A DNA stretch of 64,000 nucleotides from a virus (IMGVR_UViG_3300017780_004980:33767-97766), one strand, 5' to 3'. Counted from the stretch's first letter, positions 27,613-64,000 are shown. Made by a program: numbers and translations. The notes: generated by a model from the sequence alone, not told the origin.

Positions 27613-27681
27613 GTGATCCTCCGTGATCAGTACCTTCTGGACTTCCGTCGAACCTATGGTGTGTAGGTCTAGGTACGTCAT

Positions 27682-28431
27682 CTACGATATCTCTGCCCCC
27701 TCGGGGGTCAATATGGAAGCCGACCAGATGGACAGATGTTCGTTCAGGGGCCCGCCCGTCGTGATGATCTTGCCCGAGGCCGGCGGCTTGGTCGGCTTGT
27801 AGGCATCGAAGTCCTGCAACTTACCGCCCGTGATCTTGGACAGCGTGGGCTTCTTCGCCTCATACGAACCCCAGCCGGCGTGGTGGAACAGATCGGCCTT
27901 GCTGCCCTCCACCTTCTTGGCGCCGTAGGTCGCGTGCAGGAAGTTGACCTGCTTGCTGTTTTCCACCGCCTTCTTGCAGTAGTTCACCCGCACGAAGGTG
28001 ATCGGGTCGTCGTCCGCTGGCACCAGCCGGGCGCGCAGGGCTGCCAGGAACATACCGGTCCGGCCGTGGCCGCCGATGCAGCCACAGTGGATTTTCTTGC
28101 CCTCCTTGAGCCTGGACGCCGTCCATTGGACCATGTTCTCGAACTCAGAGGGACTGGTCGGGATATCCATGTCCTGGATGCGGAAGAAGACCTCCTCGCC
28201 CTCGGTCCAGGGGTAAATCTTCGAGGTGGGCCGCATACCGCTGTCGAAGCCGATGTAGATATCGGCGTCCTTGACGATGGGGCTGATGCAGCTGCCGCCG
28301 TAGATCGTCAGGCCTGGGGCGATTTCCAGAGGGGGGTGGCTTTCGTAGCAGCGGGGAGGTACCGGCCCTTTGGGAGTCTTGCTCTCCCAGCCGTCGAAAT
28401 CCTCCCACTGCTTCTTCTTGGGTTTAGGCAT
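27682..28431 (-). CDS. Cys-based (dual-specificity / PTP-like) phosphatase
   Basis: CX5R loop HCGCIGGHGRTG, upstream IQDMDIP acid loop, downstream AVEN..Q. Confidence 0.9.
   Translation of the reverse strand: MPKPKKKQWEDFDGWESKTPKGPVPPRCYESHPPLEIAPGLTIYGGSCISPIVKDADIYIGFDSGMRPTSKIYPWTEGEEVFFRIQDMDIPTSPSEFENMVQWTASRLKEGKKIHCGCIGGHGRTGMFLAALRARLVPADDDPITFVRVNYCKKAVENSKQVNFLHATYGAKKVEGSKADLFHHAGWGSYEAKKPTLSKITGGKLQDFDAYKPTKPPASGKIITTGGPLNEHLSIWSASILTPEGAEIS
27684..27711 (-). promoter_or_regulatory. Sigma70-type promoter
   Basis: TTGACC-N16-TATCGT. Confidence 0.6.
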
Positions 28432-29581
28432 GCTCGGGGACCTTTCTGGGGATTTTCTTGACCCCGATCTTCTGGGTGATCAGGACGTGGGTTTCGGTCG
28501 TCATATGGCCATTCGGCAGCGGGACCGGAGGGATCACCCCGGGCCCAGGCGGGGCCACGGCCTCCAGAGGCGCCGGATAGATCACCTTCGGTTTCTTGCC
28601 GGCCTTGAACGGCGGGGCGGCCTTCTGCTGGGCCGGGGTCATGTACTTGCTGTACGGGTGCATGGAGCCGAGCTCGTGGACCTTGATCCAGTCGACCGGC
28701 TGCCTGGCGAAGTCCGCCGCGCCCGGCACTTCCTCATGAACCCGACGAGCGAACTCGATCATCTCGTTGTCGACGTGCGTGTGCGAGAACAGCGAGGTCG
28801 GGTACGGATAAGGCATCATGCCCTTCGACCGCACCAGGGCCGGTATTTGCCCCGACCTCTGGACGTCCAGGATTTCGTAGAGGCCCGCGCCGTAATTATT
28901 GTAGAGCATGCCCTTGTTGAAGATCGGGCCGCCGTTGTGGGCCAGGGTCCAGACCGTGTCGAGGAACATCTCCGCCGTCGTGTGGCCCCGGACAAACGAC
29001 ACCAGAGGGTCGGTCACCTGCCCCCAGGCCGGGCCGCCGAAGCTGCTGCTGTAGCTCCCGTAGTAGTGCGTGTACTGGAGACTGGCGGCGAAATCACCGA
29101 TGGAGACATCCTTCAGATTGTTCCGGAATACGCTCATCGTGTTGCTGATTTCCGACGTGTCCTTGTAAGCCTTAAGGGCATCCGCGCAGGGTTGACCGAA
29201 GTGCTTGGCGATTATCGGCTGCATCTCGGACTTGTTCTCAAGGTGCCGAGCTTCGCGGGCCGTGATCACCGCCACGTAGTAGACCGCCCGCAGCATGCTC
29301 CGGGCCGCCCTGTCGTGGTATTCCTCGCAGATGGCCAGCACCGGATCGGGCAAGGGTTCATAGGGATCGAACGCCTGGGCGATGCAGTGCATCGCGTGGT
29401 TCGCCAGATAGAACCAAAGCGCGTGCTTCTCGGGCACCATACTGTCCGTGGCCGAGGCCCTGAAGTGGTCGATCTGGTCGGCGAAAACGTGCATGGGGGT
29501 GGCCGACAAGTCCCGCCGCATCATCAGGGGTCGGCCCTGAAGCTGATAGGCCACCGTGTTCTTCTTGGCTGAAAAGGCCAC
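28424..29581 (-). CDS. Hypothetical protein of the dikinase/phosphatase cluster
   Basis: 385 aa; conserved-looking motifs REARH, FGGPAW, DTVWTLAHNGGPIFNKG, LDVQRSGQIP; no family assigned. Confidence 0.75.
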   Translation of the reverse strand: MAFSAKKNTVAYQLQGRPLMMRRDLSATPMHVFADQIDHFRASATDSMVPEKHALWFYLANHAMHCIAQAFDPYEPLPDPVLAICEEYHDRAARSMLRAVYYVAVITAREARHLENKSEMQPIIAKHFGQPCADALKAYKDTSEISNTMSVFRNNLKDVSIGDFAASLQYTHYYGSYSSSFGGPAWGQVTDPLVSFVRGHTTAEMFLDTVWTLAHNGGPIFNKGMLYNNYGAGLYEILDVQRSGQIPALVRSKGMMPYPYPTSLFSHTHVDNEMIEFARRVHEEVPGAADFARQPVDWIKVHELGSMHPYSKYMTPAQQKAAPPFKAGKKPKVIYPAPLEAVAPPGPGVIPPVPLPNGHMTTETHVLITQKIGVKKIPRKVPEHA

Positions 29582-29615
29582 CTCGCATCCTCCATGATGC
29601 CTTAGAGATACTCGT

Positions 29616-29643
29616 ACTTTAGCTCTGGGGGCCGACGGGTCAA
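29616..29643 (-). promoter_or_regulatory. Sigma70-type promoter
   Basis: TTGACC-N16-TAAAGT (GCTAAAGT). Confidence 0.65.
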
Positions 29644-29668
29644 ACTTGAAGGCGCCGGCCCCCGGCTT

Positions 29669-30163
29669 TTACCGGAGCAGGCCCAGCCAGGCCCGGACGG
29701 CCCAGCCGAACAGTTTCTTGCGGATCGGCTTCGGGTCGAAGGCGTCGATGAAGTCCTGCTGCCCTTTCGTCTCGACGGCGTGGTCCAGATAATGCTCGCG
29801 CACCCAGATCACCGCGACGGGCGGGCCCCAGTTGTCATCATCCTCGTCCTCGTCAGGCAGGAACACCTTGGCCAGGCAGCTGTAGAACGTGCCGGTCCGG
29901 CCGATGCCGCCCATGCAGCCGGCGTAGACCTCGTTGCCGATCATGGCCTGCTTGATGGCGAACTCGACACCGGCCGCCATATCGGCCTGGGTCGGGGTGC
30001 TGAAGTCCGCGCAGGGCACGGAGTGATCGAAGGGCTTTTCGATCTCGGCGGCGAGCTTGATACCGACCAGCGCCGCCGGCCGGTTGCGGTAGGGTCCGCC
30101 TCGGAACCGCAGGGTGCGGCCGAGATAGCGGAAGCTGAACGGATCATAGTGGGCAGTCGACAT
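29669..30163 (-). CDS. Cys-based (dual-specificity / PTP-like) phosphatase
   Basis: CADFSTP acid loop, YAGCMGGIGRTG CX5R, AVET..Q. Confidence 0.9.
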   Translation of the reverse strand: MSTAHYDPFSFRYLGRTLRFRGGPYRNRPAALVGIKLAAEIEKPFDHSVPCADFSTPTQADMAAGVEFAIKQAMIGNEVYAGCMGGIGRTGTFYSCLAKVFLPDEDEDDDNWGPPVAVIWVREHYLDHAVETKGQQDFIDAFDPKPIRKKLFGWAVRAWLGLLR

Positions 30164-30186
30164 TTGACCCTCCTTGGTCTTTCTCT

Positions 30187-30214
30187 ACGGTAACTCTGGT
30201 GCAAGTGGTTGCAA
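30187..30214 (-). promoter_or_regulatory. Sigma70-type promoter whose -35 overlaps the 14-bp repeat
   Basis: TTGCAA-N16-TACCGT; TGCAACCACTTGCA covers the -35 box and part of the spacer. Confidence 0.55.
30200..30213 (+). repeat. 14-bp motif (copy 5, overlapping a promoter)
   Basis: Exact match. Confidence 0.9.
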
Positions 30215-30217
30215 ACT

Positions 30218-30580
30218 TTAGAGCAGCGAGGCGACGTCCTCGTCGATTTGTTTCTGGGTGCGCAGAGCCCGGCCGGTGTAGCCGCAGTCCGCGCAGCCCG
30301 CGCCGCTGCACAGGCCGCATTCGACCTGCTGCTGCCGGTGCTCATATTCGTGGCGGTAGGCGTCCTCGGTCCAGACCTGGTAAATCACCTCGTCATGGAC
30401 CTCCAGCACGTAGTCTTCGTACCGACGGTTCATCTGTCCCAGTGTGAACGGGGCGCCGAGATACCCCATCTCCGCGACCTTCTCGTAGGACAAGCCCAAC
30501 CTTTCGGCTTGATGCCCGGCTTTGTCGAATATCGCGTACCGGTGCGACGTGCTCTGCCCGGGATCACCCGTTCTTGGCAT
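30218..30580 (-). CDS. Hypothetical protein with C-terminal CxxC..CxxC zinc ribbon
   Basis: ECGLCSGAGCADCGYTG; likely start MPRTGD. Confidence 0.65.
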   Translation of the reverse strand: MPRTGDPGQSTSHRYAIFDKAGHQAERLGLSYEKVAEMGYLGAPFTLGQMNRRYEDYVLEVHDEVIYQVWTEDAYRHEYEHRQQQVECGLCSGAGCADCGYTGRALRTQKQIDEDVASLL

Positions 30581-30857
30581 GGAACACCTCGCCACGGTCG
30601 ATCTTGATTTCCAGGGCCGCCTGGAACACCGCGCGGACCTTGCTGGACAGGACCCGGGGACCTTCCGACACCCGGACACCGGGCAGTATTTCAGTCGCCT
30701 TCTCGGGGCCGATTTCGTACTGCTCGCCGGTACTGACCCGGGTCAGGGTAAAGGCTTCGTCGGAAAACATCTCCGTCATCACGAACCGCGCCGGCGTCTC
30801 TCCGGGCAGCGTGATGTACAGGTCTTCCTTTTCCGCCAATGTCAGGGCCAGGGCCAT
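30564..30857 (-). CDS. csrA: CsrA/RsmA-like RNA-binding translational regulator with internal insertion
   Basis: MALALTLAEKEDLYI aligns with CsrA MLILTRRVGETLMI; KVRAVFQAALEIKIDRGEVF aligns with [20 protein letters not shown], keeping the Arg44 equivalent. Confidence 0.6.
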   Translation of the reverse strand: MALALTLAEKEDLYITLPGETPARFVMTEMFSDEAFTLTRVSTGEQYEIGPEKATEILPGVRVSEGPRVLSSKVRAVFQAALEIKIDRGEVFHAKNG

Positions 30858-30905
30858 TATGCGATCCTCATGATCTTGTGGCTGTGCGTCGGTCGAGCCA
30901 CCATA

Positions 30906-32999
30906 TCAAGCACTCTTGAGGACCGCAAACGCCGCCTCACCCTTGAACATCGGTTTCGGCATCAATCTGGCCTTCGGGTTCTTCCCGAGCACCAGGTCCA
31001 TAACCTCCTTCACCTGAGCTCCGTGACCTAGGGCCGCGCGGAGGTTGTCGCTGACCGTGACGAAGCCCTCGACATGAAGCAGGCTGTGCAGGGTCAGGGC
31101 CTCCGGGACTTCCATCATGGTCTTCTTCAGCACGTCCCTGATCGGGTCGCGGTCCGTGACGAAGTACGTCTTGGTCAAGTCCGCGCCCTTGACGCCGGCC
31201 AGCACGTTCTGGACGAAGCGGGCCTGCTCGGGGACGACCCCCATAGCGTTCCAGATCATGGCGTCCGGTTTGTCGCCATAGGCATCGGCCGGGGTCGCGT
31301 CGAGGATCACCAGCTGCCCGTCATCGTTCAGCAGCTTCAGCGTATCGACCATGGTGACGATCTCCGCCGGGGTCCGGTGCAGCCATTCGGCCAGCATCAC
31401 GCAGCTGTTCGCGCGGGGCTGGACGACCTTCTCGATCATGCCGTGGTCTTCGAACAGCCAGCGGAAGAACTGGTCGAGGTATTCGTCCTCCTCGCCGCCG
31501 GCGACGGGAACCTCCTGCTTCCAGACTTCGCCGGTCGAACCGTTGATGCTGATCATGTGGCCCGGAAGCAGCGGGTCATCGACGTTCAGGTCCGTGCAGC
31601 CGACGACACAGGGCTTGTTCATGCCTCGGGCGACCACGGCAGCGTGGCTGGTGGCGCCGCCGGTCTTGGTCAGGATGCCGAGGGCCGCGTCCATGCCGGC
31701 GATGTCGTCCGGCGTCGTCTCGTGCGTCACCAGGATCACCTTCAAGCCCTGCTTGGCGGCCGAAACAGCCGCTGCGGCCGACGTGACGACATGCCCGCTG
31801 ACAACGCCAGGCGAAGCCGGAATGCCCTTCATCCAGGGCGGCGTCTTGAACTTCGGGTCGATGACCGGCCGGCTGGCGAGCAGATACTGCTTGGCGGTCA
31901 CCCGACGGTAGACCTCCTTGCGCTCGATCATGCCCTCCATGGCCAGGTCGACGGCGATCCTGAAGGCCGCCTTGGCGGTGCGCTTGCCGTTGCGGGTCTG
32001 GAGCATGAACAGCTCGCCATCCTGCACCGTGAACTCCACGTCCTGCATATCGCGGGCGTCGAGCTCCAGCTTCTCGGCGATGTCCAGCAGCTGGTGGCGA
32101 ATGGGCTCCCAGTCTTTGTCCTGCGCCATTTCGTCGAGCCCGAGCGGGGTCCGGATGCCAGCGACCACGTCCTCGCCCTGGGCGTTCGGGAGAAACTCGC
32201 CAAGCACCACCTTCTCGCCGGTCGACGGGTCGCGCGTGAACAGCACACCCGAACCCGACCGGTCGTTCATGTTGCCGAACACCATGGCCTGAACAACAAC
32301 GGCAGTGCCCATGTCCTCCGAGATGCCCTCCATCTTCCGGTAGTGGATCGCGCGCTCGCTGTTCCACGATTTGAACACCGCGCCGATGGCGAACCGCAGC
32401 TGGGTCAGCAGATCGTCGGGCGGGGTTTTGAGGCCGGCGTCCGAATAGATCGTCCAGTACCGCTTGCAGACCGAGCGAAGGGCGTCGACCGTCATGTCCG
32501 CGTCCGTGTGGGCCTTGGTCTCCTTCTTCACGGTCTCGAAGGTGGTGTCGAACCGCTTGGCGTCCAGGTTCAGCGCCGTGGTGCCCAGCATCTGGAGCAT
32601 CCTGCGGTAGCTGTCATAGGCCGCCCGCTCGTTCAGGCGCTCCTTCCAGTCGGGCAACACCTCGCGGCACATGCCGACATTGAGGATGGTGTCCATCATG
32701 CCCGGCATGGATACCGGGGCGCCCGACCGGACCGACAGCAACGGCATGTAGCCGAAGTGGTTGCGGAGCCAGTCGAGGTAGGGGCCGAGGTCGGCCATCA
32801 CCGCGTCCATCACCGCGTTCGGGGCTTCCGCGAACATCGGCGACAACGCCGTGGGGATGATGAAGCCGGGGGGCACGTTGTAGCCCCGGGCCGCCATCTT
32901 CGAAAGGTTGGCCCCTTTGCCGCCAAGCTCCCAGGCGTCGGCGTTTTGATCACCGAAACCTGCGCCAAAGCGGGGGAAAGCCTCAAATTGGTCTGTCAC
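30906..32999 (-). CDS. Pyruvate-phosphate-dikinase-like protein: ATP-grasp and phospho-His swivel domains, PEP/pyruvate TIM barrel replaced
   Basis: LGGKGANL, LLSVRSGA, MPGMMDTILN, QAMVFGN, NAQGEDVVAG, QDVEFT..LQTR, GGATSHAAVVARG. About 700 aa, ending in ~200 aa that do not resemble the PPDK barrel. GTG start at 32999. Confidence 0.9.
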   Translation of the reverse strand: MTDQFEAFPRFGAGFGDQNADAWELGGKGANLSKMAARGYNVPPGFIIPTALSPMFAEAPNAVMDAVMADLGPYLDWLRNHFGYMPLLSVRSGAPVSMPGMMDTILNVGMCREVLPDWKERLNERAAYDSYRRMLQMLGTTALNLDAKRFDTTFETVKKETKAHTDADMTVDALRSVCKRYWTIYSDAGLKTPPDDLLTQLRFAIGAVFKSWNSERAIHYRKMEGISEDMGTAVVVQAMVFGNMNDRSGSGVLFTRDPSTGEKVVLGEFLPNAQGEDVVAGIRTPLGLDEMAQDKDWEPIRHQLLDIAEKLELDARDMQDVEFTVQDGELFMLQTRNGKRTAKAAFRIAVDLAMEGMIERKEVYRRVTAKQYLLASRPVIDPKFKTPPWMKGIPASPGVVSGHVVTSAAAAVSAAKQGLKVILVTHETTPDDIAGMDAALGILTKTGGATSHAAVVARGMNKPCVVGCTDLNVDDPLLPGHMISINGSTGEVWKQEVPVAGGEEDEYLDQFFRWLFEDHGMIEKVVQPRANSCVMLAEWLHRTPAEIVTMVDTLKLLNDDGQLVILDATPADAYGDKPDAMIWNAMGVVPEQARFVQNVLAGVKGADLTKTYFVTDRDPIRDVLKKTMMEVPEALTLHSLLHVEGFVTVSDNLRAALGHGAQVKEVMDLVLGKNPKARLMPKPMFKGEAAFAVLKSA

Positions 33000-33023
33000 C
33001 TGATCCTCCATGATCATACGATT

Positions 33024-33051
33024 ACACTAGGCTCTGGGGTCTGCTGGTCAA
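33024..33051 (-). promoter_or_regulatory. Sigma70-type promoter
   Basis: TTGACC-N16-TAGTGT. Confidence 0.65.
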
Positions 33052-33581: not shown

Positions 33582-33609
33582 ATATGACCCTCCTTGGTCT
33601 GATACCCCT

Positions 33610-33637
33610 ATTGTATCTGGAGGGTCCGACGGGACAA
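33610..33637 (-). promoter_or_regulatory. Sigma70-type promoter
   Basis: TTGTCC-N16-TACAAT. Confidence 0.65.
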
Positions 33638-54066: not shown

Positions 54067-54873
54067 TCAGGTCGCGCTACTGCCGATAGCCGTCATAAAG
54101 GCGACATAGGCGTTCCACAGGGCGGTATGCTCCGCGTCGGAGATCGCCTGGCCGACGAAGCCGAGGGCCACCTGCTTGGACGTCAGGTTCGTCCCGTCCG
54201 ACGTCAAGATCAGGAAGTTGGCATTGGTCGGAGCTGTTGAGGTCTGGCCTACCGACGCCTGGGCCACGCCGTTCTTCTGGGGCGTGTACGAGCCAGCCGC
54301 AGACCGGCTCATACCATACAGGCCTTTCCCCGTGTTGGCGGAAACAATGACGTTCACCGTCGTCGACCCGCCGTACATGATCCAGTCCCCACCCGTCGCC
54401 CGGCGCGGCATGGTCCGCATGTTGGCGACGCCACCCAGCGCCTTGACGTTGTTGCTGTCCGCCGCGTCCGTGAGTGTGGCGAATCCGTACGAGACGTCGT
54501 CCTGGGCGAGTTTCCTGCCGGCGGCCGTGGACGGGTTGAACCCGCTATCCAGGTACGACGACGCCGCACTGGTCCAGCCCCCGTCTGCCGTGAAAGTCGG
54601 GGTGTTGACCTTGGTGAGGTCGTACGTGCCGGGGTTGACGAGGTTGATCCGGGTGGCCGCGTCGGCGTGACCCACCAGCAGATACAGCAGGTCCATCTTT
54701 GTCCAGCCACCGGCGGTGAAGACACTGTCGATGAACGTGCGAAGATGGCCTTCCCGGGTCGCGTCGGGGGATACTCCCAGCGCCGACATTCTATCCAGCA
54801 CCGCCGTTTGAGCCGGCATGGAGCCGGTCGCGCGGCGGCTCAAAATCAATCGTCGCCGGCGGGTCGGGTCCAT
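54067..54873 (-). CDS. Putative virion accessory protein (lectin-like beta-sandwich)
   Basis: Start MDPTRRRRLI; W.KMDLLY, INL.NPG, YLDSGFNPST pattern; coupled to the upstream fibre-like gene. Confidence 0.55.
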   Translation of the reverse strand: MDPTRRRRLILSRRATGSMPAQTAVLDRMSALGVSPDATREGHLRTFIDSVFTAGGWTKMDLLYLLVGHADAATRINLVNPGTYDLTKVNTPTFTADGGWTSAASSYLDSGFNPSTAAGRKLAQDDVSYGFATLTDAADSNNVKALGGVANMRTMPRRATGGDWIMYGGSTTVNVIVSANTGKGLYGMSRSAAGSYTPQKNGVAQASVGQTSTAPTNANFLILTSDGTNLTSKQVALGFVGQAISDAEHTALWNAYVAFMTAIGSSAT

Positions 54874-56405
54874 CAGTTGTTGTCCGCCGTCACCTTCAGC
54901 GTCCAGTCCGACGTGGTGCCGGGCGTAAACGCACCACGGGTCAGGATCAGGATGAACAGGTCGGTGCCGGCCTGCCCTTGGAACGGAATGCGGCACTCCA
55001 CCGCGCCGACCGTCTTGGTTCCTCCGAGGGGGCGCCAGGTGTCAATCCGGGCATGGCCAAGAATGTTGGCTTCGTCCCCCGCCGACAGAGTCAGAGCCCC
55101 GTTGTCGGTGTAGGTGCCGCTGGCCGGCGTGGCCTTGAACAGGATGATATCGAGCGCCTGCGCCACCGCCGTCTTCGAAACAATGTCGATGTACGTGATG
55201 TAGCCGCTCTTGGCCGTAGCCCGGGCGATGGCCGACAGGGTGATGATGCCGCCGACCACGTCGTCCGCCGCGTAGGCCGAGGTCGAGATCGTCGGGGTCA
55301 CCGACACGGTGATCATGCTGCCCGCGACTTCGCCGATATGCCCTTCGTTGGCGTCGATGGCGCCGATCCGCGTATGCAGACGACCGACGCTGTCGTAAAT
55401 CGCCAGGGTGTAGTCCCCGTCCGTGCCGGCCAAAGACGCCGCCGTGTCCTTGCGGACCCCGAGGGCGCCAATTCCGGAGTCCCCCGACCCATGCGCCGCA
55501 TCTTCCGCGTACTGGGTGACCGCGCTGGAGCCGGACCCGCCGACAGGAGCCACCGCCGCAGGCGCCAGGGTCCGCCCGGTGCTCAGGGTCACGGCGATTT
55601 CGTCGATATCCAGGCAGGCGATCCGGGAGATCACCACGTTGGTGTTCGTGGCCGGCGTAGAACCATTCTTGAAGTGCAGTTGCAGCTTGTACAGTCGGCC
55701 AGGGTGCGGGACCTGCGAGCTCAGGCGGAGAGCCGTGGCCGTGGGGGCGGTGACCACGTCCTTGGCCTGTGCGTGGTAGAAGACGTCCTGCGGCCGGACA
55801 ACCATGGCGTACTCACCACCAGTGGTCAGGCTCTGCGAGGCGGTCGTGTTGACGGCTAGGACCGAGCTGTCTTCAGAGATCGTCTCCAGTTCCGCACGGG
55901 CCGCCGTGGTCGTGTTCCCGAAATACATGCTGGCCCGGTTCTTGTAGTCTCCGGACAGGCTCGCGTGGGCCACGGCAGCCAGCGTGGTGGCGTCGACTTC
56001 GATCAGGCTGATCCGGACCTGGTTCGCGGCCAGGCGCTGCGACAGCGACAGGATGGCTCGGATATCGGTCGGGATCGTGAAGGTCTCGACGGACCGAAGG
56101 ATCAGCTCGGCGCCATTGGTCGTGCCCATACCCACCGTCAGGGTGCTGGCACTGACCGTCTTGGTCATACCCCCCGTGTCGGTGATCGTCTCCCACAGGG
56201 TCGCGTCAATGGCGGAGCCTGAGAAGCAGTCCGTGAAGGTCTTCTTGGTCGTCGACACCCCAAGGCGGGGCTGACCATCAGCACCAAGGACCTCCGAGTC
56301 GGACGCCGCGTACTGGGCGTAGATATCCGTCTCGCCGGCCACCACCCGCATGCCGAATTTCTTCGACACACCGTTGCGGTCCTGTCCCGTGTAGAAGTCG
56401 GTCAT
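54873..56405 (-). CDS. Putative virion fibre/decoration protein
   Basis: 510 aa, Thr/Ser/Ala beta-rich; YAEDAAH.SGD.G..ALGVR.D and AYAADDVVGG segments typical of phage structural proteins. Confidence 0.55.
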   Translation of the reverse strand: MTDFYTGQDRNGVSKKFGMRVVAGETDIYAQYAASDSEVLGADGQPRLGVSTTKKTFTDCFSGSAIDATLWETITDTGGMTKTVSASTLTVGMGTTNGAELILRSVETFTIPTDIRAILSLSQRLAANQVRISLIEVDATTLAAVAHASLSGDYKNRASMYFGNTTTAARAELETISEDSSVLAVNTTASQSLTTGGEYAMVVRPQDVFYHAQAKDVVTAPTATALRLSSQVPHPGRLYKLQLHFKNGSTPATNTNVVISRIACLDIDEIAVTLSTGRTLAPAAVAPVGGSGSSAVTQYAEDAAHGSGDSGIGALGVRKDTAASLAGTDGDYTLAIYDSVGRLHTRIGAIDANEGHIGEVAGSMITVSVTPTISTSAYAADDVVGGIITLSAIARATAKSGYITYIDIVSKTAVAQALDIILFKATPASGTYTDNGALTLSAGDEANILGHARIDTWRPLGGTKTVGAVECRIPFQGQAGTDLFILILTRGAFTPGTTSDWTLKVTADNN

Positions 56406-56493
56406 GCGTGCCCCCGTAGCGATCCATGCTGGATTACCACGTTTTCCTGGGGACGCGACGGTTCAGATGAGGGTCATGCCCAGAAAACTGGAT

Positions 56494-56507
56494 TGCAACC
56501 ACTTGCA
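56494..56507 (-). repeat. 14-bp motif (copy 10, intergenic)
   Basis: Exact match. Confidence 0.9.
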
Positions 56508-56791
56508 ATTCTTACCGAGGTCTGGGTCAGCCTTCTCGCCAGCTTCGGGGTTCTGGCCTGCGGGCCATGGGCGAGACGAGGTCGTCGATCAGGTCTTCGC
56601 ACGCTTGGCAGGTCCGGGGTGTTTTTTCCGGGGACGGGTCGAGACGCCCGAAGCACAGTTGGCAGATACGACCGGTGCGAATGTCCTCAACTGAGGTCTG
56701 CATAGAAACTCCCCGAAACTCTCAAACAGCCTACGGGTCAGTCGGGCTGTGGACAACCCTTTAACCAGCCATGACGGAGAGTACAACCCAG

Positions 56792-57214
56792 CTACTTCTC
56801 GGTGTTCAAATCCATGTACTTTCCGTCCATGAACACCCCCTGAGATTTGGCCGACAGCGTGCGGATGATCAACCCATCCTTGGCTACCGCCTTGAGGCCA
56901 AGACTTATATAAGTCCGCCTCCATGCTTCGTCGGTCGTTCCCGGCGTAACATGGGCGGTCCAGTCCTTGCCTTGTCCGATGTCGATCAGCATGCCGATCT
57001 TGTTCGGTTTCCAGTCTCGGGGCAGATGACCCAGGGCCCAGGCGCAGAACCAGGTTCGGCAGGAGTCGGGTCGGGTCTGGTATATGCGGCAGCCCCGCGA
57101 GCAGATGTGTGGGCACTTGGCCCGCATCGGCTTTTCCAGCTCGACGACGGCCATCACGGTGCAGCAGGCCGTACAGTCTCCGCAGCGACGGGTGGCTTTG
57201 ACGGGCTCAGTCAT
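56792..57214 (-). CDS. YkgJ-family cysteine-cluster (CxxCxxCC) protein
   Basis: CGDCTACC...CPH....C.IY..RP..CR.WFC. Confidence 0.85.
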   Translation of the reverse strand: MTEPVKATRRCGDCTACCTVMAVVELEKPMRAKCPHICSRGCRIYQTRPDSCRTWFCAWALGHLPRDWKPNKIGMLIDIGQGKDWTAHVTPGTTDEAWRRTYISLGLKAVAKDGLIIRTLSAKSQGVFMDGKYMDLNTEK

Positions 57215-58077
57215 CCTTGGAGACCGGCGGCCAGCTTGTCGAGCAGGTCAGATATTTCCTTCCGGCGTTTGTCGAAATCCTCCATCGCCTTGAGGAAGTC
57301 CTCCTCCAGCTGGACCAGCCGCGCTCGGTAGGCATCCAGCTTCACCGTATTCTGATCAGCGGCTTTGGACCGGTCGGGTCCGTACAAGGCCTCCCGCACT
57401 TCGGCGATCCACGCCCGGGGGACATCCATCTTTTCAGCCAGCTTCTTGTCCGACCAGGAGCCATTGTACATCTCGGCTTCCGGGTCGTAGTAGTGCGCCA
57501 GGGCCTCGTCTACCGCACGCCTCTGGGCCCGGGTCGGCTGCCTCGGCGGATCAGCGGTGATCCCGATCTCGGCGCCGGGGCGATCTTGCCGGTCTTCTTC
57601 TGGAATAGGCATGGTCGGCTCTTTCTCTGGCTCGCGCGGCGGAGGGGGTGCAAGAGGCGCCACCGGGGCAGAGCGAGGCTTCCGGGGCTTTATGGGCTTG
57701 ATGGGCTTCGCCGGCGGAGGCTCGGCCGGCAGGTCATGGATTTCGTGGTCCCGCGTGTTGCGGACTTCCAGGGCGGCGCCCTCGGCTATGTGAACCAGCC
57801 GATCCAGGCCGGCTTCCGGTGCTGACTTGGCGCGCTCCCAGCCCGCGCACGTCGGGCACTTGTCCTTGGTCCGGCTCGACCCCATGGACCATCCGCGTTT
57901 GCGGAACAACTTCTCGCCGGCTTCCGGCGGCACGGAGCCGCTCAGGTTCGCGGCTATCAAGAAATCCTTCTTCGGGCATTTCGAGCACGAGACGACGATA
58001 GCGGGTTTCGGCTTTGGGTCGTCGCCTACCAGATGGCTTTCTACCGGGAAGCCTCTCCGTTCCATTCTCTGGCTCAT
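57211..58077 (-). CDS. Hypothetical protein with N-terminal zinc finger, Pro-rich linker and HTH/coiled-coil C-terminus
   Basis: CSKC...CPTC; WSDKKLAEKMDVPRAWI..VRE..YGP. Confidence 0.7.
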   Translation of the reverse strand: MSQRMERRGFPVESHLVGDDPKPKPAIVVSCSKCPKKDFLIAANLSGSVPPEAGEKLFRKRGWSMGSSRTKDKCPTCAGWERAKSAPEAGLDRLVHIAEGAALEVRNTRDHEIHDLPAEPPPAKPIKPIKPRKPRSAPVAPLAPPPPREPEKEPTMPIPEEDRQDRPGAEIGITADPPRQPTRAQRRAVDEALAHYYDPEAEMYNGSWSDKKLAEKMDVPRAWIAEVREALYGPDRSKAADQNTVKLDAYRARLVQLEEDFLKAMEDFDKRRKEISDLLDKLAAGLQG

Positions 58078-58865
58078 TCCGGCGTGTACCATCCTTCCTG
58101 GGACAGGTAATACCCCGTGTCCCCAGCGTATTCGAAGAAGTCCTCGATGACCGAGTCATCGTCGTCAGGGGCTGGCTGCGGGTGCGACACGTGGGACCAC
58201 ATCTCACGGCAATACTCGGCCAGCTCCTTGCGACCTAACTCCTTGGTGGCGAACAGGCGATAGAAGGCGGAGGTTTCCGGCTCCTCGATCAGATACCCGT
58301 AGACCTCCTTCAAGGCGGTCTTCAGGCCAGGCACTTTCGCGCTGTCGTGGACGTCGATGTATTCCTGATCGTTGTGCTCGAAGTAGAAGTCGATCACCAT
58401 CTGATCCGGGATGCCGGTATGGTCGTCCGGCACTTCGTCGTGGTCTGAAACTTCATCCCAGCAGTCCCGGCAGTATTGCGCCATCTGCTTGGTCAGGCCG
58501 TCGTCCGTGGTGTCGACGTAGAAGTTGTGGCCGTGCTTGTGTGAGATCGTCGCCACCCAGATCACCGGGTCCTCGGTCTTCGGTTCCGGCATGAGGCTCG
58601 GCGTTCCGAAAGTGATTGTGGCGTGCTGGAAGGGAAGCTGCCCGTCCGGGTCCATCCTCTCGGACGACCAATGGTCAAGGCCGCGCCGGACGAGGTCTGC
58701 GGCGTCATAACCCAGGCTTTCCGCGTAGTGGCAAATGTCCCCGATCATATCTCCAATGATCGTGTTCATCTCCTCTCCGTGCAGGGGGCCATCGCTGACG
58801 ATGCTGTAGGCCACCGCCGCTGTCCGGCCGGCGCCGGCCCGGTAGTCGTTGTTCTTGGATTCCAT
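58074..58865 (-). CDS. Hypothetical acidic protein with internal duplication
   Basis: Start MESKNND after AAGGAGG; two copies of A.YCR..W..V......P.D...I..(Y/F)FE. Confidence 0.7.
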   Translation of the reverse strand: MESKNNDYRAGAGRTAAVAYSIVSDGPLHGEEMNTIIGDMIGDICHYAESLGYDAADLVRRGLDHWSSERMDPDGQLPFQHATITFGTPSLMPEPKTEDPVIWVATISHKHGHNFYVDTTDDGLTKQMAQYCRDCWDEVSDHDEVPDDHTGIPDQMVIDFYFEHNDQEYIDVHDSAKVPGLKTALKEVYGYLIEEPETSAFYRLFATKELGRKELAEYCREMWSHVSHPQPAPDDDDSVIEDFFEYAGDTGYYLSQEGWYTPE

Positions 58866-58890
58866 TCTGACCCTCCTTGGTCTTCGTCTT

Positions 58891-58918
58891 ACGGTAGGGG
58901 TTATACCCCCTGCTTCAA
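58891..58918 (-). promoter_or_regulatory. Sigma70-type promoter
   Basis: TTGAAG-N16-TACCGT. Confidence 0.5.
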
Positions 58919-59320
58919 GTAGTTTTTCTTGCGCTCGACGATCTTCCAGTATTCCCGGAGGCACTCGACCATAGCCGGCCGGTCGTCCTTCAGGATCGCC
59001 GTGACCACGTCGACGGACGCCTGGGCGACCTGCTTCCAGCGGTGGAACCAGATCACGTACGACAGGTCGTAGGTGTGCTTGGCGAGCTCGTCCCGGAGCG
59101 CCTGAATGTCTCCCAGCTGGCCCTTGTTGAGCAGGGCGTCCGCGAGCGGCGGCATGTCGAATAGCGCCTTGGTTTTCGGCTTGGCGAGCTCCCAGGGCGT
59201 CCCGCCGAGGTCGGCGGCGGTAACCTTGTCCTCCCCCGGCTCCTTGTCGCCGATGACCAGGCGTTTCGGCGCAGGCTTAGGCGGGGGCGGCGGAGTGCGG
59301 TTCGTGATGTTCAGCGGCAT
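58901..59320 (-). CDS. Hypothetical protein
   Basis: 139 aa, Pro-rich N-terminus. Confidence 0.65.
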   Translation of the reverse strand: MPLNITNRTPPPPPKPAPKRLVIGDKEPGEDKVTAADLGGTPWELAKPKTKALFDMPPLADALLNKGQLGDIQALRDELAKHTYDLSYVIWFHRWKQVAQASVDVVTAILKDDRPAMVECLREYWKIVERKKNYLKQGV

Positions 59321-59361
59321 CGGGGCTCTCGTTGTTGGGGCCTGCCCGGATTAGCAGGCCC

Positions 59362-59375
59362 TGCAAGTGGTTGCA
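59362..59375 (+). repeat. 14-bp motif (copy 11, intergenic)
   Basis: Exact match. Confidence 0.9.
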
Positions 59376-59383
59376 AAGTCAGA

Positions 59384-59500
59384 TCAGAACGGTGCTGATC
59401 TTCTGGGCCCGCTGGTACAGGGCCTTGACGTCTTCCATCGGCGTCGTCGGGGACACTCGTTGCAGGGCTTCTTGTGGACGAGGGGGTACCGGTCGGCCAA
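59384..59500 (-). pseudogene. Short ORF / deletion remnant (MADRYPLVHKKPCNECP...)
   Basis: TTG start after a GGAGG hairpin; the KPCxECP motif runs into a basic, frameshift-like tail; an overlapping frame encodes MEDVKALYQRAQKISTVLI. Confidence 0.4.
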
Positions 59501-59617
59501 GGCATCCTCCGTGATGCGTCAAAAGGTGGGGGAGACCGGCTGGGTGCGAGTGGGCCGATCTCCCCTGCTCCTGCCTGGCGGGGGGTGTGCTGGGCAGGAG
59601 GGTCTTGTTGTACGTCT

Positions 59618-59645
59618 ACGATGGCACAGGGGCCGTGATGGTCAA
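59618..59645 (-). promoter_or_regulatory. Sigma70-type promoter
   Basis: TTGACC-N16-CATCGT. Confidence 0.5.
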
Positions 59646-59653
59646 GGAAAGGA

Positions 59654-60190
59654 TCAGGCGGCGACTTGTTGGTTGTCCGCCGTGATCTTGGAGTAAACGG
59701 GGACGCCGGCCACCGTCCAGTCGACCTCGCCGGTGTCGTTGAAGTGCGTGAGGACCTTGATCGCCTGTTCCTTGGTGATGGTATTCCAGAGGCTCATGGG
59801 TTGGGGCATGAACAGCGCCGACCGCTGCAACAGAGTCAGGCCCAGGTACGTGGCGGCGTAGTCGCCCCAGTCATCCAAGGGTTCCTCGCTATCTTTCGGG
59901 CGGAAGCCGGCCGCCAGGGCCAGCAAGGAGGCCTCTCCGGCGATGCAGGCGACGGTGCCACAGGCGGGGGCATCCAGGGCCTTCTTCTGCAACCCGGTCA
60001 CCCGGACAGCCTCGTCCCGGGCCATCTTCCAGACCTTGTCGTCGTCCACGACTTCGTAGAGGTTGCTGTAGTTCTCTATGTCGAAGACGGCGGCGCCGTC
60101 GATCCATCCGGACATATCGAACGCCTCTGCCGGCATCTTCTCCAGATGCGTGATCAGCTTTTCGAGACGTTTCTGGTGTATACGGTCCAT
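59654..60190 (-). CDS. Hypothetical protein (C.TVACIAG family, paralogue of 61952..62431)
   Basis: F.M..W, CGTVACIAGEA, LGLT......LF.P, I.KE.AI..L.....TGEVDW. Confidence 0.8.
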   Translation of the reverse strand: MDRIHQKRLEKLITHLEKMPAEAFDMSGWIDGAAVFDIENYSNLYEVVDDDKVWKMARDEAVRVTGLQKKALDAPACGTVACIAGEASLLALAAGFRPKDSEEPLDDWGDYAATYLGLTLLQRSALFMPQPMSLWNTITKEQAIKVLTHFNDTGEVDWTVAGVPVYSKITADNQQVAA

Positions 60191-60225
60191 TTATCGGCCC
60201 CTCCATGGGCTAGGTGGCTTGAGGT

Positions 60226-60253
60226 ACTCTGTACTATACGCCTGTGTTGTCAA
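60226..60253 (-). promoter_or_regulatory. Sigma70-type promoter
   Basis: TTGACA-N16-CAGAGT. Confidence 0.45.
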
Positions 60254-60257
60254 TGGG

Positions 60258-60638
60258 TTACAGCGGCAATTCGAACTGCCGGGTGATGATGCCATGCACG
60301 TTCCGGGCGTTCATCTGGAAAGTCGCCCATCGGAGATTGCCGCGCCGGGCGTCCATCTTGTTCCCGTTCATGTGGTCTCCGATGTGGTACCGGGGGTCGG
60401 AATGGGGGCCGACCGCGCGCATAAGGACTTCCTTATGTAACCAGATCAGCCGACCGCCCTCCGAGCGCACCGGGTACATGGTCTTCCACTTCTTGTGGAT
60501 CGCGTGGGTGACGAACCAGTTGCCCCGGTCCTTCGCCCATTCGTAATCCTCCGGGGATACCAAGGCCGTCATCTCGTAGGTCTTGCCGCAGCATATCAGC
60601 TCGAAATACGGGCCCCGGCCGTCGGGATGCTCAATCAT
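60258..60638 (-). CDS. HNH endonuclease
   Basis: ALVSPEDY, LHKEV, DHMNGNKMD.RR.NLRWAT...N; start MIEHPDG. Confidence 0.85.
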   Translation of the reverse strand: MIEHPDGRGPYFELICCGKTYEMTALVSPEDYEWAKDRGNWFVTHAIHKKWKTMYPVRSEGGRLIWLHKEVLMRAVGPHSDPRYHIGDHMNGNKMDARRGNLRWATFQMNARNVHGIITRQFELPL

Positions 60639-61035
60639 CCCCGTCGTCGACCGGCTTGTAGGCCCGCTCCCAGACCTCCTTCGGCACCACTTTGGAAATC
60701 GTCCCGCCTTCGTCCAAGAAATTGATCCCGGGGATTTCGGCATCGGGGCCGACGATGATGATCTCGTCGATGTAGATGACCTGCTTGCCGTTCGGGCCCT
60801 CGAACAGGACGCCCATCATATCGAGCTCCGCTTCGATCTCGGCGACCCGCTTCTGGGCCTCCTCGTCGGCCAGGGCGACCGCGATATCGCCGTCGTCGAT
60901 CTTCTGGTCGAAGAAGTCCCGCACCCGGGCGAACAGGTACTCGGTCGACTTGTCCGGGTCCTCGGCCTCGACGTCGTTCCAGGCGATGATGATCTCGTCG
61001 TTCGAAATCCCGGCGTCGTTGCTCTCGTCAGTCAC
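60631..61035 (-). CDS. Hypothetical acidic protein
   Basis: 134 aa, strongly Asp/Glu-rich. Confidence 0.7.
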   Translation of the reverse strand: MTDESNDAGISNDEIIIAWNDVEAEDPDKSTEYLFARVRDFFDQKIDDGDIAVALADEEAQKRVAEIEAELDMMGVLFEGPNGKQVIYIDEIIIVGPDAEIPGINFLDEGGTISKVVPKEVWERAYKPVDDGDD

Positions 61036-61261
61036 TTTTCGTCATCTCCCTAATTGCCCGGCCGGCGGCCTGGCGAATGTTGTTGAGGGCGTTGTCCCGA
61101 TTGATCGGGGAACTGCTGATCGTGACCAGGCGGGTCTTTTCACCAATCGTGATCTCGATCTTGGTGTGCCCTCGGCCCCCGGTCGTGTGCTTGGCATCGC
61201 CGCCGGCGCTCTGGGCCATCTGCCGGATCGTCCGCAGGGCCTCGCGTTCATGCTTCTGCAT
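61028..61261 (-). CDS. Small basic protein, HicA-like dsRBD pattern
   Basis: GRGHTKIEI...VTISSSP......N pattern; 77 aa. Confidence 0.5.
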   Translation of the reverse strand: MQKHEREALRTIRQMAQSAGGDAKHTTGGRGHTKIEITIGEKTRLVTISSSPINRDNALNNIRQAAGRAIREMTKSD

Positions 61262-61461
61262 CAGCGGTCATCACCGGGCTGGTCGACCCTGCTGACCACC
61301 ATGCCGACGCCGTTTGGACGGACGAAGTCCAGAGCGCGCCGTTGCTCCTTGGTCGGGTTAACGAACAGGCGAGACACCGCGTCCAGCGGACTGTCCCCCA
61401 TCTTGAATATGTGCGTCACGCTGCCGTCCGTGCATGTGACGCTGATCCGCCAATAATCCAT
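61261..61461 (-). CDS. Hypothetical protein
   Basis: 66 aa with AAGGAGG RBS and promoter. Confidence 0.65.
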   Translation of the reverse strand: MDYWRISVTCTDGSVTHIFKMGDSPLDAVSRLFVNPTKEQRRALDFVRPNGVGMVVSRVDQPGDDR

Positions 61462-61490
61462 CTCTGTGACCCTCCTTGGTCTGTTCTCTA

Positions 61491-61518
61491 ACTATGGCTG
61501 GTGTGTCCGGCAGGTCAA
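61491..61518 (-). promoter_or_regulatory. Sigma70-type promoter
   Basis: TTGACC-N16-CATAGT. Confidence 0.55.
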
Positions 61519-61691
61519 GGGGTGGGTCATGGGGGAGACACTGGTGTCTAGGGGGTCGCCCCCACCGTCGCCCCCATGACTCAAAGGTTAACGCCTTTTT
61601 TGCCTTTAAAGCCCAATTTTCAGCCTGGCCGATAAGAGTCGGACTGAAGGCGCCTTCGGGGCCCCCCATTTGCAGTATGCCCGAGCTGGGC

Positions 61692-61952
61692 CTAGACCTC
61701 CCGGACCTGGCAGACGTCAACGGCCGTCCAAGGGATCAGGGTCACGTAGTCGGCATCCCCCCACTCCTTGTCCGGTAAGCCGTGCGGTCTATGGGGACGG
61801 ATGATCAGACCGAGCTCGTCGTAAGACAGCACGGCGGACCAGGCTCCGAAATTACTCCTGTCCCGACATTGGAGCCTAACATCGTAGACTTGTCCCTCGG
61901 CGTCGAGGGTGCGGAAGTGGGCGAGCATCCCCATAGGGGTCTTGGTGGCCAT
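61692..61952 (-). CDS. Hypothetical protein
   Basis: 86 aa, coupled to the upstream gene. Confidence 0.6.
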   Translation of the reverse strand: MATKTPMGMLAHFRTLDAEGQVYDVRLQCRDRSNFGAWSAVLSYDELGLIIRPHRPHGLPDKEWGDADYVTLIPWTAVDVCQVREV

Positions 61953-62431
61953 CAGGCGGTCTCCTTCTTCTTCCTCGGCTTGACCAGATGGCTCCAGTCG
62001 ACCTCACCGGTCTCCAGCAGCTTCTCCAAGGTCCTGATCGCCTCGTCCTTGCTGATCCCCACCATACCGCCGGTCCGCTTGGCGGGCAGGTCATCCATAC
62101 CTGGCGTAAACAGGGCCATCGACTGTCCTAGGGTCAGGCCCAACCACTCAGCGGCGGCGGGAGCAAAACCCAGGGCTCCCAATTCTTCTCCCCGCGCCTT
62201 GGCGAGCAGGACCGCCTCCCCGGCTATGCAGGCGACAGTCTTACAGGGGTGGCCACGCTCGGCGGTCTTCTGGGCCTCGATTATGGCCTTGGCTTGGTCC
62301 TGCTCCAGCTGCCCGGCGAAATTGTAGGCCCCGGCGGGACCCATCAACCAGTCGCCCATGTTGAAGGCCCGCTTCGGCATGACCTTCATGTGGTCGATCA
62401 GGATTTGCAGGTTCTCTGTGTTCAAGGCCAT
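61952..62431 (-). CDS. Hypothetical protein (paralogue of 59654..60190)
   Basis: FNMGDW, CKTVACIAGEA, LGLTL....ALF.P, TGEVDW. Confidence 0.8.
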   Translation of the reverse strand: MALNTENLQILIDHMKVMPKRAFNMGDWLMGPAGAYNFAGQLEQDQAKAIIEAQKTAERGHPCKTVACIAGEAVLLAKARGEELGALGFAPAAAEWLGLTLGQSMALFTPGMDDLPAKRTGGMVGISKDEAIRTLEKLLETGEVDWSHLVKPRKKKETA

Positions 62432-62607
62432 CAGGCAGTCCTCTTGGTGCGGGGTTGATAGCGGGTGCGGGCTGCGACCTCGCCCTGGGTCTTCTCCAGC
62501 GCCGTGGCGAGCTTGCGGATCATCGCGGTGGCCTCCGCCATGCTGTAGTGCCCCAGGGCCAGGTCGCCGGCCAGCTGCCGGGCTTCTCGTACGAGTTTCT
62601 TGGTCAT
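62431..62607 (-). CDS. Small hypothetical protein
   Basis: Start MTKKLVRE in an ATGA overlap; 58 aa. Confidence 0.55.
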   Translation of the reverse strand: MTKKLVREARQLAGDLALGHYSMAEATAMIRKLATALEKTQGEVAARTRYQPRTKRTA

Positions 62608-62963
62608 GCCATCTCCTTGAGGACCGCCAGGACGTCGGCCTTCTTCCGCAGCGGGCTGTCGTGCCATTCGATGATCGGCCTGACCCCGATGATCTCCCGC
62701 ACCTTGTTGGCGATGTTGGCGAGAGCCGCGATCTTCTCCTGGGTCATGCCGGTACGACCCTGCCTGAAAGCCACCCGGTGCAGAGCCCCGAGGATGCAGA
62801 AGCTGCACGCCTTGGAGCTGTCGTACATGACCTTGTTCCCCTCCGCGTCCTTGGCCGAGGACCCCTGCGTCCACCCGTTGGGTTTCTCCAGCAGGACGAG
62901 CGCCGCTGCCGCGATTTTCTTCTCCGCCGGGGAGAGCACGATCTTGTCTTGGGTGTCGCTCAT
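62604..62963 (-). CDS. Hypothetical phage protein (GWTQG...C..GAL...W.D family)
   Basis: Start MSDTQDK; GWTQG, FCILGAL, IIEWHD...R....V motifs. Confidence 0.7.
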   Translation of the reverse strand: MSDTQDKIVLSPAEKKIAAAALVLLEKPNGWTQGSSAKDAEGNKVMYDSSKACSFCILGALHRVAFRQGRTGMTQEKIAALANIANKVREIIGVRPIIEWHDSPLRKKADVLAVLKEMA

Positions 62964-63325
62964 TGGTCCGTCACCAGTTCGAGGTAGCTGTCGTCCGGCC
63001 GGGTAAACCAACCCTTGCCGGCAGAGGGGTGAAACTCGACGAAGGTCCCAACAGGGTCCTCCCACTGGACGATGTCCGGTCCCGGGTCCGATCCCATCCC
63101 AGGACGCCAGCCCTTGCAGGTAAGGACCTCCCCCACAGGGACGGCCCGGCCCCAGCCCTGCCAGCCCCCGGTGATAGGCTTCCACCCCCAGAGGCGGGCC
63201 CCGTCCTTGATGATCCGGTACCTGCCGCCCTTGGCGTAGGGATGCTGCGTGGGCGGGGGCGCGGGCGTCTCCTCGGCAGGGCGCTGGTTCGTCCCGGGGC
63301 CGTCCTGTGCCTGAATGTCCGTCAT
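62960..63325 (-). CDS. Hypothetical protein
   Basis: 121 aa with AGGAGG RBS. Confidence 0.65.
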   Translation of the reverse strand: MTDIQAQDGPGTNQRPAEETPAPPPTQHPYAKGGRYRIIKDGARLWGWKPITGGWQGWGRAVPVGEVLTCKGWRPGMGSDPGPDIVQWEDPVGTFVEFHPSAGKGWFTRPDDSYLELVTDQ

Positions 63326-63738
63326 GCGATCCTCCTGATCGTCTATGTCTTCCGAAATTTCCCGAAATTTTCCGGGCTATCGTGTGCCGGGTTTCTGGGA
63401 TGGTGTCGAACTCTTACTCTAGCTGAAATGGGGCTGGTGTCCGAGAAATGTCAGCCATTTGTCTGATGTGTCGTCCGTGGTCCCATGAGGGGCGCACAGG
63501 TCTTCGAGGGGCTCCGTGGGGCTTCGAGGGGCAATGAGGGGCGCCTGGTGCCTCCTGGACGCTGTGTGACACAGTGTCGGTCCTCCCGGGCGAATTTGAC
63601 AGCTGGTCCTGTGAAAACCTTGGAAATTCGTACGACGTCGGCGGGACGATGCATTTCGTCGCCAGCATTCCTATTCCTGCGAAATCTGCGGTCAGACGGC
63701 CGGCCCATTGGACCGACCATCCTTCGCCTTCTCGTCGG

Positions 63739-63957
63739 CTACTCCTCCTGCTCCCCCCAGGCGACCAACTCCTTGGCCATCTTCAACAATGCGGGGCTAG
63801 GCTTGCGGGCGTTCTGGCAGGCCCACCCCATAGCCTGCGCTGCTATCTGGTCTGCGTCGTCCTGACTGTACACCCGCAACTGGGCAATCTCCCTGCCCCT
63901 GTCGTCGTTCCCCTGTATGACCAGGCTGTCCAGGGCTCGGTGCGCTCTCGTCTTCAT
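63739..63957 (-). CDS. Hypothetical protein
   Basis: Start MKTRAH after a GGAGG hairpin; 72 aa. Confidence 0.6.
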   Translation of the reverse strand: MKTRAHRALDSLVIQGNDDRGREIAQLRVYSQDDADQIAAQAMGWACQNARKPSPALLKMAKELVAWGEQEE

Positions 63958-64000
63958 CTGTCGGTCCTCCATGACCAATGGGGGGGCGGGGGCCATCCCT

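Follow-up and report, generated by a model that had tools for sequence, protein, structure and literature searches.

Hairpins shaped like CsrA sites at ribosome-binding sites of an uncultured phage that encodes a divergent CsrA-like protein

INTRODUCTION

The DNA considered here is a stretch of 64,000 nt from an uncultured phage (bases 33767–97766 of the 97,766-bp IMG/VR virus record IMGVR_UViG_3300017780_004980). We call this whole stretch the window, and positions are counted from its first letter unless the genome is named. The minus strand holds essentially all genes of the phage. On that strand, many non-structural genes carry their Shine–Dalgarno sequence in the loop of a short hairpin with the shape of a binding site for the bacterial translational regulator CsrA, and the gene at 30564–30857 (−) encodes a CsrA-like protein of 97 amino acids (hereafter P0001) with an insert of ~45 amino acids.

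The phage genome has a G+C content of ~63% and a 123-bp direct terminal repeat. In PHROG and Pfam scans, the portal, protease, major capsid, tail, and tape measure genes are found at 57–23556 and the DNA polymerase at 23589–26003. A PPDK-like dikinase is present at 30906–32999, with two DSP-type phosphatases close by. A sugar-pathway block, a ParB-like gene, and a probable terminase occupy 37873–47867, and numerous small genes fill 49000–64000. The first 33.7 kb of the genome contain replication/recombination genes and more small genes. The same gene order is found in Stenotrophomonas phage DLP3, Rhodobacter phage RcZahn, and Rhizobium phage RHph_TM16; the core proteins are 40–65% identical to those of RcZahn, TM16, and DLP3, about equally distant from each.

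P0001 is the second gene of an operon that starts with the PPDK-like dikinase (30906–32999, −; PF01326, PF00391, phrog_18609). The block 26767–32999 (−), comprising the dikinase, the CsrA-like gene, a small open reading frame, a DSP phosphatase, a 385-residue protein, and the second DSP phosphatase, keeps its order in RcZahn, RHph_TM16, and DLP3. According to its paper (PMC12038007), Vibrio phage J26 keeps this order too.

RESULTS

Hairpins along the minus strand

All 14 hairpins that a first-pass annotation of the window had listed on the minus strand are present at their coordinates. In the kinase region (all hairpins are written 5′ arm–loop–3′ arm), the kinase itself has TGATC-ATGGAG-GATCA on its ribosome-binding site (33001–33016, −), and a sigma70-like promoter, TTGACC-N16-TAGTGT (33024–33051, −), lies 7 nt upstream of that hairpin. 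GACC-AAGGAG-GGTC precedes a gene of 89 codons (33585–33600, −; promoter 33610–33637) and, in a second copy (30165–30180, −), the DSP-phosphatase gene 29669–30163. GCATC-ATGGAG-GATGC (29585–29600, −; promoter 29616–29643) stands before the gene of the 385-residue protein, and TGATC-ACGGAG-GATCA (27614–27629, −) before that of a 281-residue protein.

In the region of small genes, GGTC-ATGGAG-GACC (63963–63976, −) precedes a 72-codon gene; it is in the terminal repeat, with a second copy at genome 86–99. The pentaloop hairpin CGATC-AGGAG-GATCG (63327–63341, −) precedes a 121-codon gene. Two further copies of GACC-AAGGAG-GGTC are at 61467–61482 (−; promoter 61491–61518) and, before a 263-codon gene, at 58868–58883 (−). 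GCCC-ATGGAG-GGGC (60197–60210, −; promoter 60226–60253) precedes a 178-codon gene, and GATC-AAGGAG-GATC (53623–53636, −) follows a promoter at 53645–53672. A second pentaloop hairpin, GGACC-AGGAG-GGTCC (50281–50295, −), precedes an RNase H-like gene. The hairpin CGAC-ATGGAG-GTCG (46844–46857, −; promoter-like site 46885–46912) was absent from the earlier list. It precedes the ATG of a 211-codon frame (46201–46836, −) that overlaps, in a different reading frame, an epimerase/dehydratase open reading frame (45152–46783, −).

Three copies have no usable distance to a start codon. GCATC-ACGGAG-GATGC (59502–59517, −) has no assigned downstream gene. GGGCC-ATGGAG-GGCCC (51566–51581, −) begins 15 nt past the promoter 51597–51624 and ends 49 nt before its gene, a distance at which its loop is not a Shine–Dalgarno sequence. 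GCCAA-ATGGAG-TTGGC (26023–26038, −), with an A–U closing pair, precedes the start of the DNA polymerase by ~20 nt, too great a distance for a Shine–Dalgarno.

Frequency and stem variation

A perfect hairpin was defined as a Watson–Crick stem of at least 4 bp with a 5–6-nt loop ending in GGAG and a start codon 3–12 nt downstream. Over the whole genome, 24 of the 154 GGAG sites with a start codon 3–12 nt downstream form one. When the 5′ and 3′ arms are swapped between sites, 2.5 ± 1.5 are expected (maximum 8 in 2000 trials), and on the antisense strand none of 55 sites has a perfect hairpin. About 10 of the perfect copies are found beyond the window, at genome 1–33766, together with further variants containing a G–U pair or a bulge. 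An unrestricted search for hairpins of any kind close to start codons gave too much noise to be informative. By itself, ANGGAG occurs no more often than expected (142 vs. 145 expected); the signal is thus in the complementarity of the flanks.

The variation of the stems with retention of pairing, claimed in the first-pass annotation, holds throughout the genome, with at least 12 different stems. These include GATC, CGATC, TGATC, GACC/GGTC, GGTC/GACC, GCATC/GATGC, and GCCC/GGGC, as well as GGGCC, GGACC, CGAC/GTCG, GGAAC/GTTCC, and AATC/GATT. Folding energies of the minimal hairpins range from −1 to −9.7 kcal/mol, with a mean of −4.9, and most of these hairpins persist in a wider folding context. 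In the 24 sites, 3–11 nt separate the end of GGAG from the start codon, and the loops overlap the Shine–Dalgarno as CsrA/RsmE sites do. The data support the hairpins as real, selected RNA structures matching CANGGANG.

Loop and closing pair

Position 1 of the hexaloop is A in all 19 hexaloops of this genome, position 2 is variable (T 10, A 7, C 2), and all 19 are closed by a C–G pair, the loops reading C-A-N-G-G-A-G-G. The RsmE/CsrA consensus is (A/U)CANGGANG(U/A), and every one of the 19 fits CANGGANG (PMC6849547), in agreement with the earlier assignment of the ANGGAN hexaloop as the high-affinity site of CsrA/RsmA. There is no such preference in the hairpin-free GGAG ribosome-binding sites, where the equivalent position is A in ~32%. 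Pairing with 16S rRNA does not account for the loop pattern, since the base adjoining GGAG is not conserved. Moreover, the ANGGAG loop is retained in 2–3 copies too distant from a start to be a Shine–Dalgarno (51566, 26023). In the related phages described below, loop position 1 is A in 82/90 and the closing pair C–G in 67/90.

Promoters and gene classes

The promoter-like pattern TTG[ATC][CA][CA]-N16-[TC]AnnnT has 26 matches on the coding strand and two on the opposite one. A perfect hairpin is found within 45 nt after 17 of these 26 sites, and an imperfect one after 2–3 more. The gap between the −10 box and the stem is 7–33 nt; the first gene of a transcription unit therefore has a very short leader made up mostly of the hairpin. 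No hairpins are found at genes abutting or overlapping the one upstream. The promoter and hairpin scans bear out the assignment of the hairpins to the first genes of promoter-driven non-structural units. Likewise, hairpins had not been noticed before head or tail genes, and none of the 19 portal-to-tail genes has one vs. 24 of 107 others (Fisher p = 0.023); a weak 4-bp variant with a G–U pair, not a perfect hairpin, occurs at 16673–16686. The same placement is seen in RcZahn. About 25–30 promoter-proximal non-structural genes are confirmed to have a ribosome-binding site folded into a hairpin of the CsrA-site shape.

Related phages

A search with the PPDK-like kinase gave 80 related viral loci, in 49 of which a homologue of P0001 is directly downstream of the kinase. 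These 49 loci contain 117 hairpins vs. 12.8 ± 3.5 expected, and each phage favors its own stems. The hairpin on the kinase ribosome-binding site is retained across loci with at least 13 other stems. At an orthologous site, such a diversity of stems indicates compensatory change. RcZahn has 18 hairpins (2.2 expected), at annotated gene starts, and RHph_TM16 has the gene together with 5 hairpins in 39 kb. A separate clade of phages with lower G+C content (L053, L056–L080) shares only the PPDK-like kinase (42–45% identity) and lacks both the CsrA-like gene and the hairpins.

P0001 and its family

An exhaustive HMMER search found 27 relatives of P0001 at 35–52% identity. The closest (P0002 and P0003, 49–52%) were not placed on contigs in scans of viral and metagenome sequences. 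P0001 matches the hidden Markov model of its homologues with E 3.7e-25, and of 27 aligned family members, all syntenic homologues, 22 match the Pfam CsrA family PF02599 (best E 7.8e-8). Against 177,635 PDB sequences, the family profile matches solely CsrA, RsmE, RsmN, and RsmF, with E from 3e-3. The homology of P0001 to CsrA is transitive, since the family matches CsrA and P0001 itself does not.

The CsrA match is in two pieces ~45 residues apart. The N-terminal consensus MALVLSLxxGxDFYVGD aligns with CsrA β1–β2, and the C-terminal consensus RVxIDAPRxIxILRGxxYR aligns with β4–β5 and the helix, including the arginine equivalent to R44. In hhalign comparisons with E. coli CsrA, the C-terminal part aligns with E 2.7e-5 and the N-terminal part with E 1.8e-3. 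The critical RNA-binding residues in β1 and β5 of E. coli CsrA we take to be L2, L4, R6, R7, V40, V42, R44, and I47. P0001 keeps L3, L5, I84, I86, R88, and V91 as equivalents of L2, L4, V40, V42, R44, and I47; R88 is conserved in at least 90% of the family. The suggestion that 30564–30857 is a CsrA relative with an insert is therefore upheld at the level of the family (22/27 with PF02599, PDB profile) and not by the sequence of P0001 alone. We take the family to be CsrA-derived and insert-bearing, with P0001 as a divergent member.

An AlphaFold prediction with the family alignment gives a compact monomer (pLDDT 95.2, pTM 0.85) with nine strands and a C-terminal helix. The single-sequence AF2 model of P0001 is poor (pLDDT 64), and Foldseek results on that model are meaningless. 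In VIA-align comparisons, RsmN/RsmF give Z 4.8–5.0 at 23–24% identity, and CsrA 1vpz_A gives Z 4.3 with a root-mean-square deviation of 2.0 Å over 55/57 residues (model residues 42–97). The Foldseek value for RsmF is E 0.099. At E ≤ 1e-3, the model has 11 matches among predicted viral structures; that at rank 12 (E 3e-3, past the cut-off) is named carbon storage regulator. There is no sequence sign of an internal duplication between the N- and C-terminal halves of P0001 (E 0.23). In a monomer of this type, the insert may take the place of the partner subunit of CsrA, so that one chain would form the β-sandwich for which CsrA needs a dimer; this would leave one RNA site.

DISCUSSION

A possible translational control circuit

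The presence of ribosome-binding-site hairpins together with an encoded CsrA-like protein indicates that the phage probably runs its own translational control circuit. The first-pass annotation had proposed that the phage shuts off translation of the first genes of early and middle operons with its own CsrA, as a temporal switch. In the form given here, the non-structural genes would be transcribed from ~26 sigma70-like promoters (TTGACC-N16-yAnnnT) into leaders most of which are short and consist of little beyond one 4–7-bp hairpin. The loop would present A-N-G-G-A-G, with the final G of the GGAGG Shine–Dalgarno paired in the stem. P0001 (or its orthologues in the relatives, such as RcZahn gp7 and RHph_TM16 EVB27_132) would bind these loops, clamp the stem, and block the 30S subunit. 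Rising amounts of this protein, made from the kinase operon, would lower the translation of first cistrons in early and middle units, including the kinase at the head of its own operon, and the hairpin-free structural genes would be spared. The binding, the repression, and the timing are predictions from sequence, and we give the action of a private CsrA-type repressor on these leaders a probability of roughly 0.45.

Several observations weigh against it. P0001 alone has no match in Pfam (E ≤ 10), PHROGs, PDB sequences, or a word-indexed protein search. It has L7 and A8 at the positions of CsrA R6/R7 and thus no basic residue there (position 8 is K or R in most family members), and AA in place of the AP motif of CsrA. 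The structural Z-scores are middling, and generic β-sandwiches score higher (up to Z 8.3); on the fold, the prediction is a confident AlphaFold monomer with CsrA/Rsm at Z 4.3–5.0, surpassed by these unrelated β-sandwiches. The hairpin on P0001's own ribosome-binding site, GATC-ATGAG-GATC as read from the sequence (30863–30875, −), has the same scaffold with a loop ATGAG that lacks GGA. A strong Shine–Dalgarno in a loop at the 5′ end could also be useful without any protein.

The distribution among related phages is also adverse in part. Twenty-one loci without the gene have no hairpins at 242 sites, and co-occurrence across relatives is formally strong (Fisher p = 3e-8); however, these 21 loci form one long-branched clade in the kinase tree. 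The Fisher test was therefore rejected as independent support, the tree providing one evolutionary contrast. DLP3 encodes a protein of the family (DLP3_137, E 4e-10), and its whole genome has no such hairpins; the 20-kb loci L023, L027, L078, and L016 also have the gene and no such hairpins. Altogether, hairpins are confined to gene-bearing phages, and the gene does not imply hairpins.

Possible leader function without a protein partner

The same distribution bears on the alternative that the leaders act without a protein. The 5′ stem–loop would guard the mRNA from 5′-end-dependent decay with the Shine–Dalgarno exposed, single-stranded, for efficient initiation, and the CsrA-like protein would have its targets elsewhere, for example in host mRNAs. 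The hairpins do begin 7–33 nt past the −10 box, at or near the 5′ end of the RNA, and their stability (mean −4.9 kcal/mol) is moderate. The retention of the gene without hairpins in DLP3 and other relatives, and of the hairpin scaffold without GGA before P0001, agree with it too, and no protein is known to bind the analogous start-associated sequences (SAS) of Cluster K mycobacteriophages (PMC3203893). On the other hand, protection of the 5′ end fails to explain the invariant A at loop position 1 next to a free position 2, the near-fixed C–G closing pair, and the ANGGAG loops kept at sites that are not Shine–Dalgarno sequences (51566, 26023). We regard such leaders as the main rival to the private repressor, and as somewhat unlikely.

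Host CsrA and nucleases as alternatives

The hairpins could also be bound by the CsrA/RsmA of the host. The phage would then sense the Csr state of the host, or the leaders would titrate CsrA, with the phage protein as a competitor or mimic. The sites match the bacterial consensus exactly, the hosts of the relatives, Stenotrophomonas and Vibrio, are counted as CsrA-bearing (PMC12038007), and a scan of 301 sampled Alphaproteobacteria found CsrA in 62. On the other hand, none of 301 sampled genomes from the order of the RHph_TM16 host carries CsrA over the Pfam cut-off, yet RHph_TM16 has hairpins. (The order sampled is that of Ancylobacter, which also holds Rhizobium by NCBI taxonomy.) Host CsrA is thus an unlikely partner in that phage, which leaves the phage protein or none. 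Besides, Sinorhizobium meliloti (S. meliloti) is reported to have no chromosomal csrA (PMC7366521). The absence of hairpins in DLP3 is a further difficulty for binding by host CsrA. The host genus of DLP3, Stenotrophomonas, presumably carries RsmA/CsrA. Altogether, we consider binding by host CsrA quite improbable.

Cleavage of the GGAG loops by a phage or host endoribonuclease like T4 RegB, which would inactivate early mRNAs, is very improbable: the loops always contain GGAG, the RegB tetranucleotide, on early-type transcripts (PMC1702504), but no RegB-like gene was noticed among ~40 proteins scanned, and RegB needs neither a covarying stem nor an A-N prefix.

Comparison with known systems

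The hairpins resemble the sites of CsrA/RsmA/RsmE (as in RsmE–hcnA, PDB 2jpp) in the A-N-G-G-A-N hexaloop, closed by C–G and overlapping the Shine–Dalgarno. The family also has the N-terminal β1–β2 and C-terminal β4–β5–helix motifs of CsrA with the R44 equivalent. In contrast, P0001, at 97 amino acids with the ~45-residue insert, exceeds the typical CsrA (a single domain of ~55–75 amino acids); it is predicted as a compact monomer, whereas CsrA is a domain-swapped dimer, and it is under Pfam detection, no match to PF02599 being found in the whole phage genome. The proposed targets belong to the phage itself, namely its early and middle genes, with one site per leader. Unlike in CsrA systems, a sponge RNA similar to CsrB/RsmZ was not found in an Rfam scan of the genome.

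CsrA is among the best-understood bacterial translational regulators, and until now the copies in phages have been interpreted as means of manipulating the host. The phage-borne CsrA/RsmA homologues described are highly similar to bacterial CsrA and were proposed to manipulate host genes, such as CRISPR-Cas (Campa et al. 2021, PMC8450108; Sobrero and Valverde 2020, PMC7366521). In Vibrio phage J26, ORF99 is annotated as CsrA and adjoins a tyrosine phosphatase, and J26 has a PPDK (PMC12038007), a gene neighborhood that matches that of P0001. Our literature search found no paper on CsrA-type hairpins at a phage's own ribosome-binding sites.

In Cluster K, the SAS has an invariant sequence of 13 nt, GGGATAGGAGCCC, in which symmetric outer bases surround AGGAG; it occurs 3–7 nt before start codons, at non-structural genes only, in one orientation, and has neither a known function nor a known binding partner (PMC3203893). 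The present hairpins are likewise directly upstream of non-structural gene starts and in one orientation, but there is no conserved 13-nt sequence: at least 12 stems vary and covary around a fixed loop. The hosts and phage lineages are also different.

The proposed logic is that of T4 RegA, a small phage protein that represses many early mRNAs at their ribosome-binding sites (PMC3014915); the function of P0001 would resemble it on a CsrA scaffold. No RegA homology was seen in passing, no search aimed at RegA having been made. The T4 RegA sites are unstructured and AU-rich.

A possible single-chain derivative

An extension of the private repressor is that the insert-bearing family is a single-chain, monovalent CsrA derivative serving a whole clade of ~90–105-kb siphophages, including RcZahn and RHph_TM16, as an early/middle repressor, even in hosts without Csr. 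The insert would supply the strands that the partner subunit gives in the CsrA dimer, the RNA site being made of the N- and C-terminal strands, and the conserved neighbors (PPDK-like kinase and two phosphatases) might control this repressor. Taken as a whole, it is an unlikely conjecture. If a private CsrA-type repressor is indeed at work, the CsrA scaffold would have been remodeled and aimed at a phage's own genes, in a clade that reaches Csr-less hosts, as a second, independent solution to the problem solved by T4 RegA; synthetic biology would also gain a repressor and its operator hairpin as a compact module that is easily transferred. Since the cultured phages RcZahn and RHph_TM16 carry both parts, the idea is directly testable.

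Other sequence elements

A perfect hairpin, ATCTC-ATGGAG-GAGAT, is also found within the DNA polymerase gene (24868–24883, −), in frame with an internal ATG that would yield the C-terminal 426 amino acids of the polymerase. It is probably due to chance, since no more than 3 nt separate it from that ATG.

The genome has one match in Rfam or ARAGORN searches, a tRNA-Met (CAT) at 50342–50415 (−). Genomic relatives searched with the tail protein were not found.

Outside the window, the minus strand at genome 5200–5620 is purine-rich, with 8 ANGGA motifs per 300 nt (five times the genome average). It contains CTCTCC-AAGGAGG-GGAGAG and sits within an open frame of low third-position G+C that the gene caller missed. 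The stretch may be a coding region or a GGA-rich decoy RNA.

A quasi-palindrome, TTGCAACCACTTGCA, is repeated directly upstream of the portal and protease genes. Copies occur at 30187–30214, ~23560–23580, and ~21925–21945 in the window and at genome 4690–4900 and 5700–5716; TTGCAACCACTTGCA also provides the −35 element of the promoter preceding the phosphatase gene. This repeat may act as an operator or late-promoter element, separate from the hairpins.

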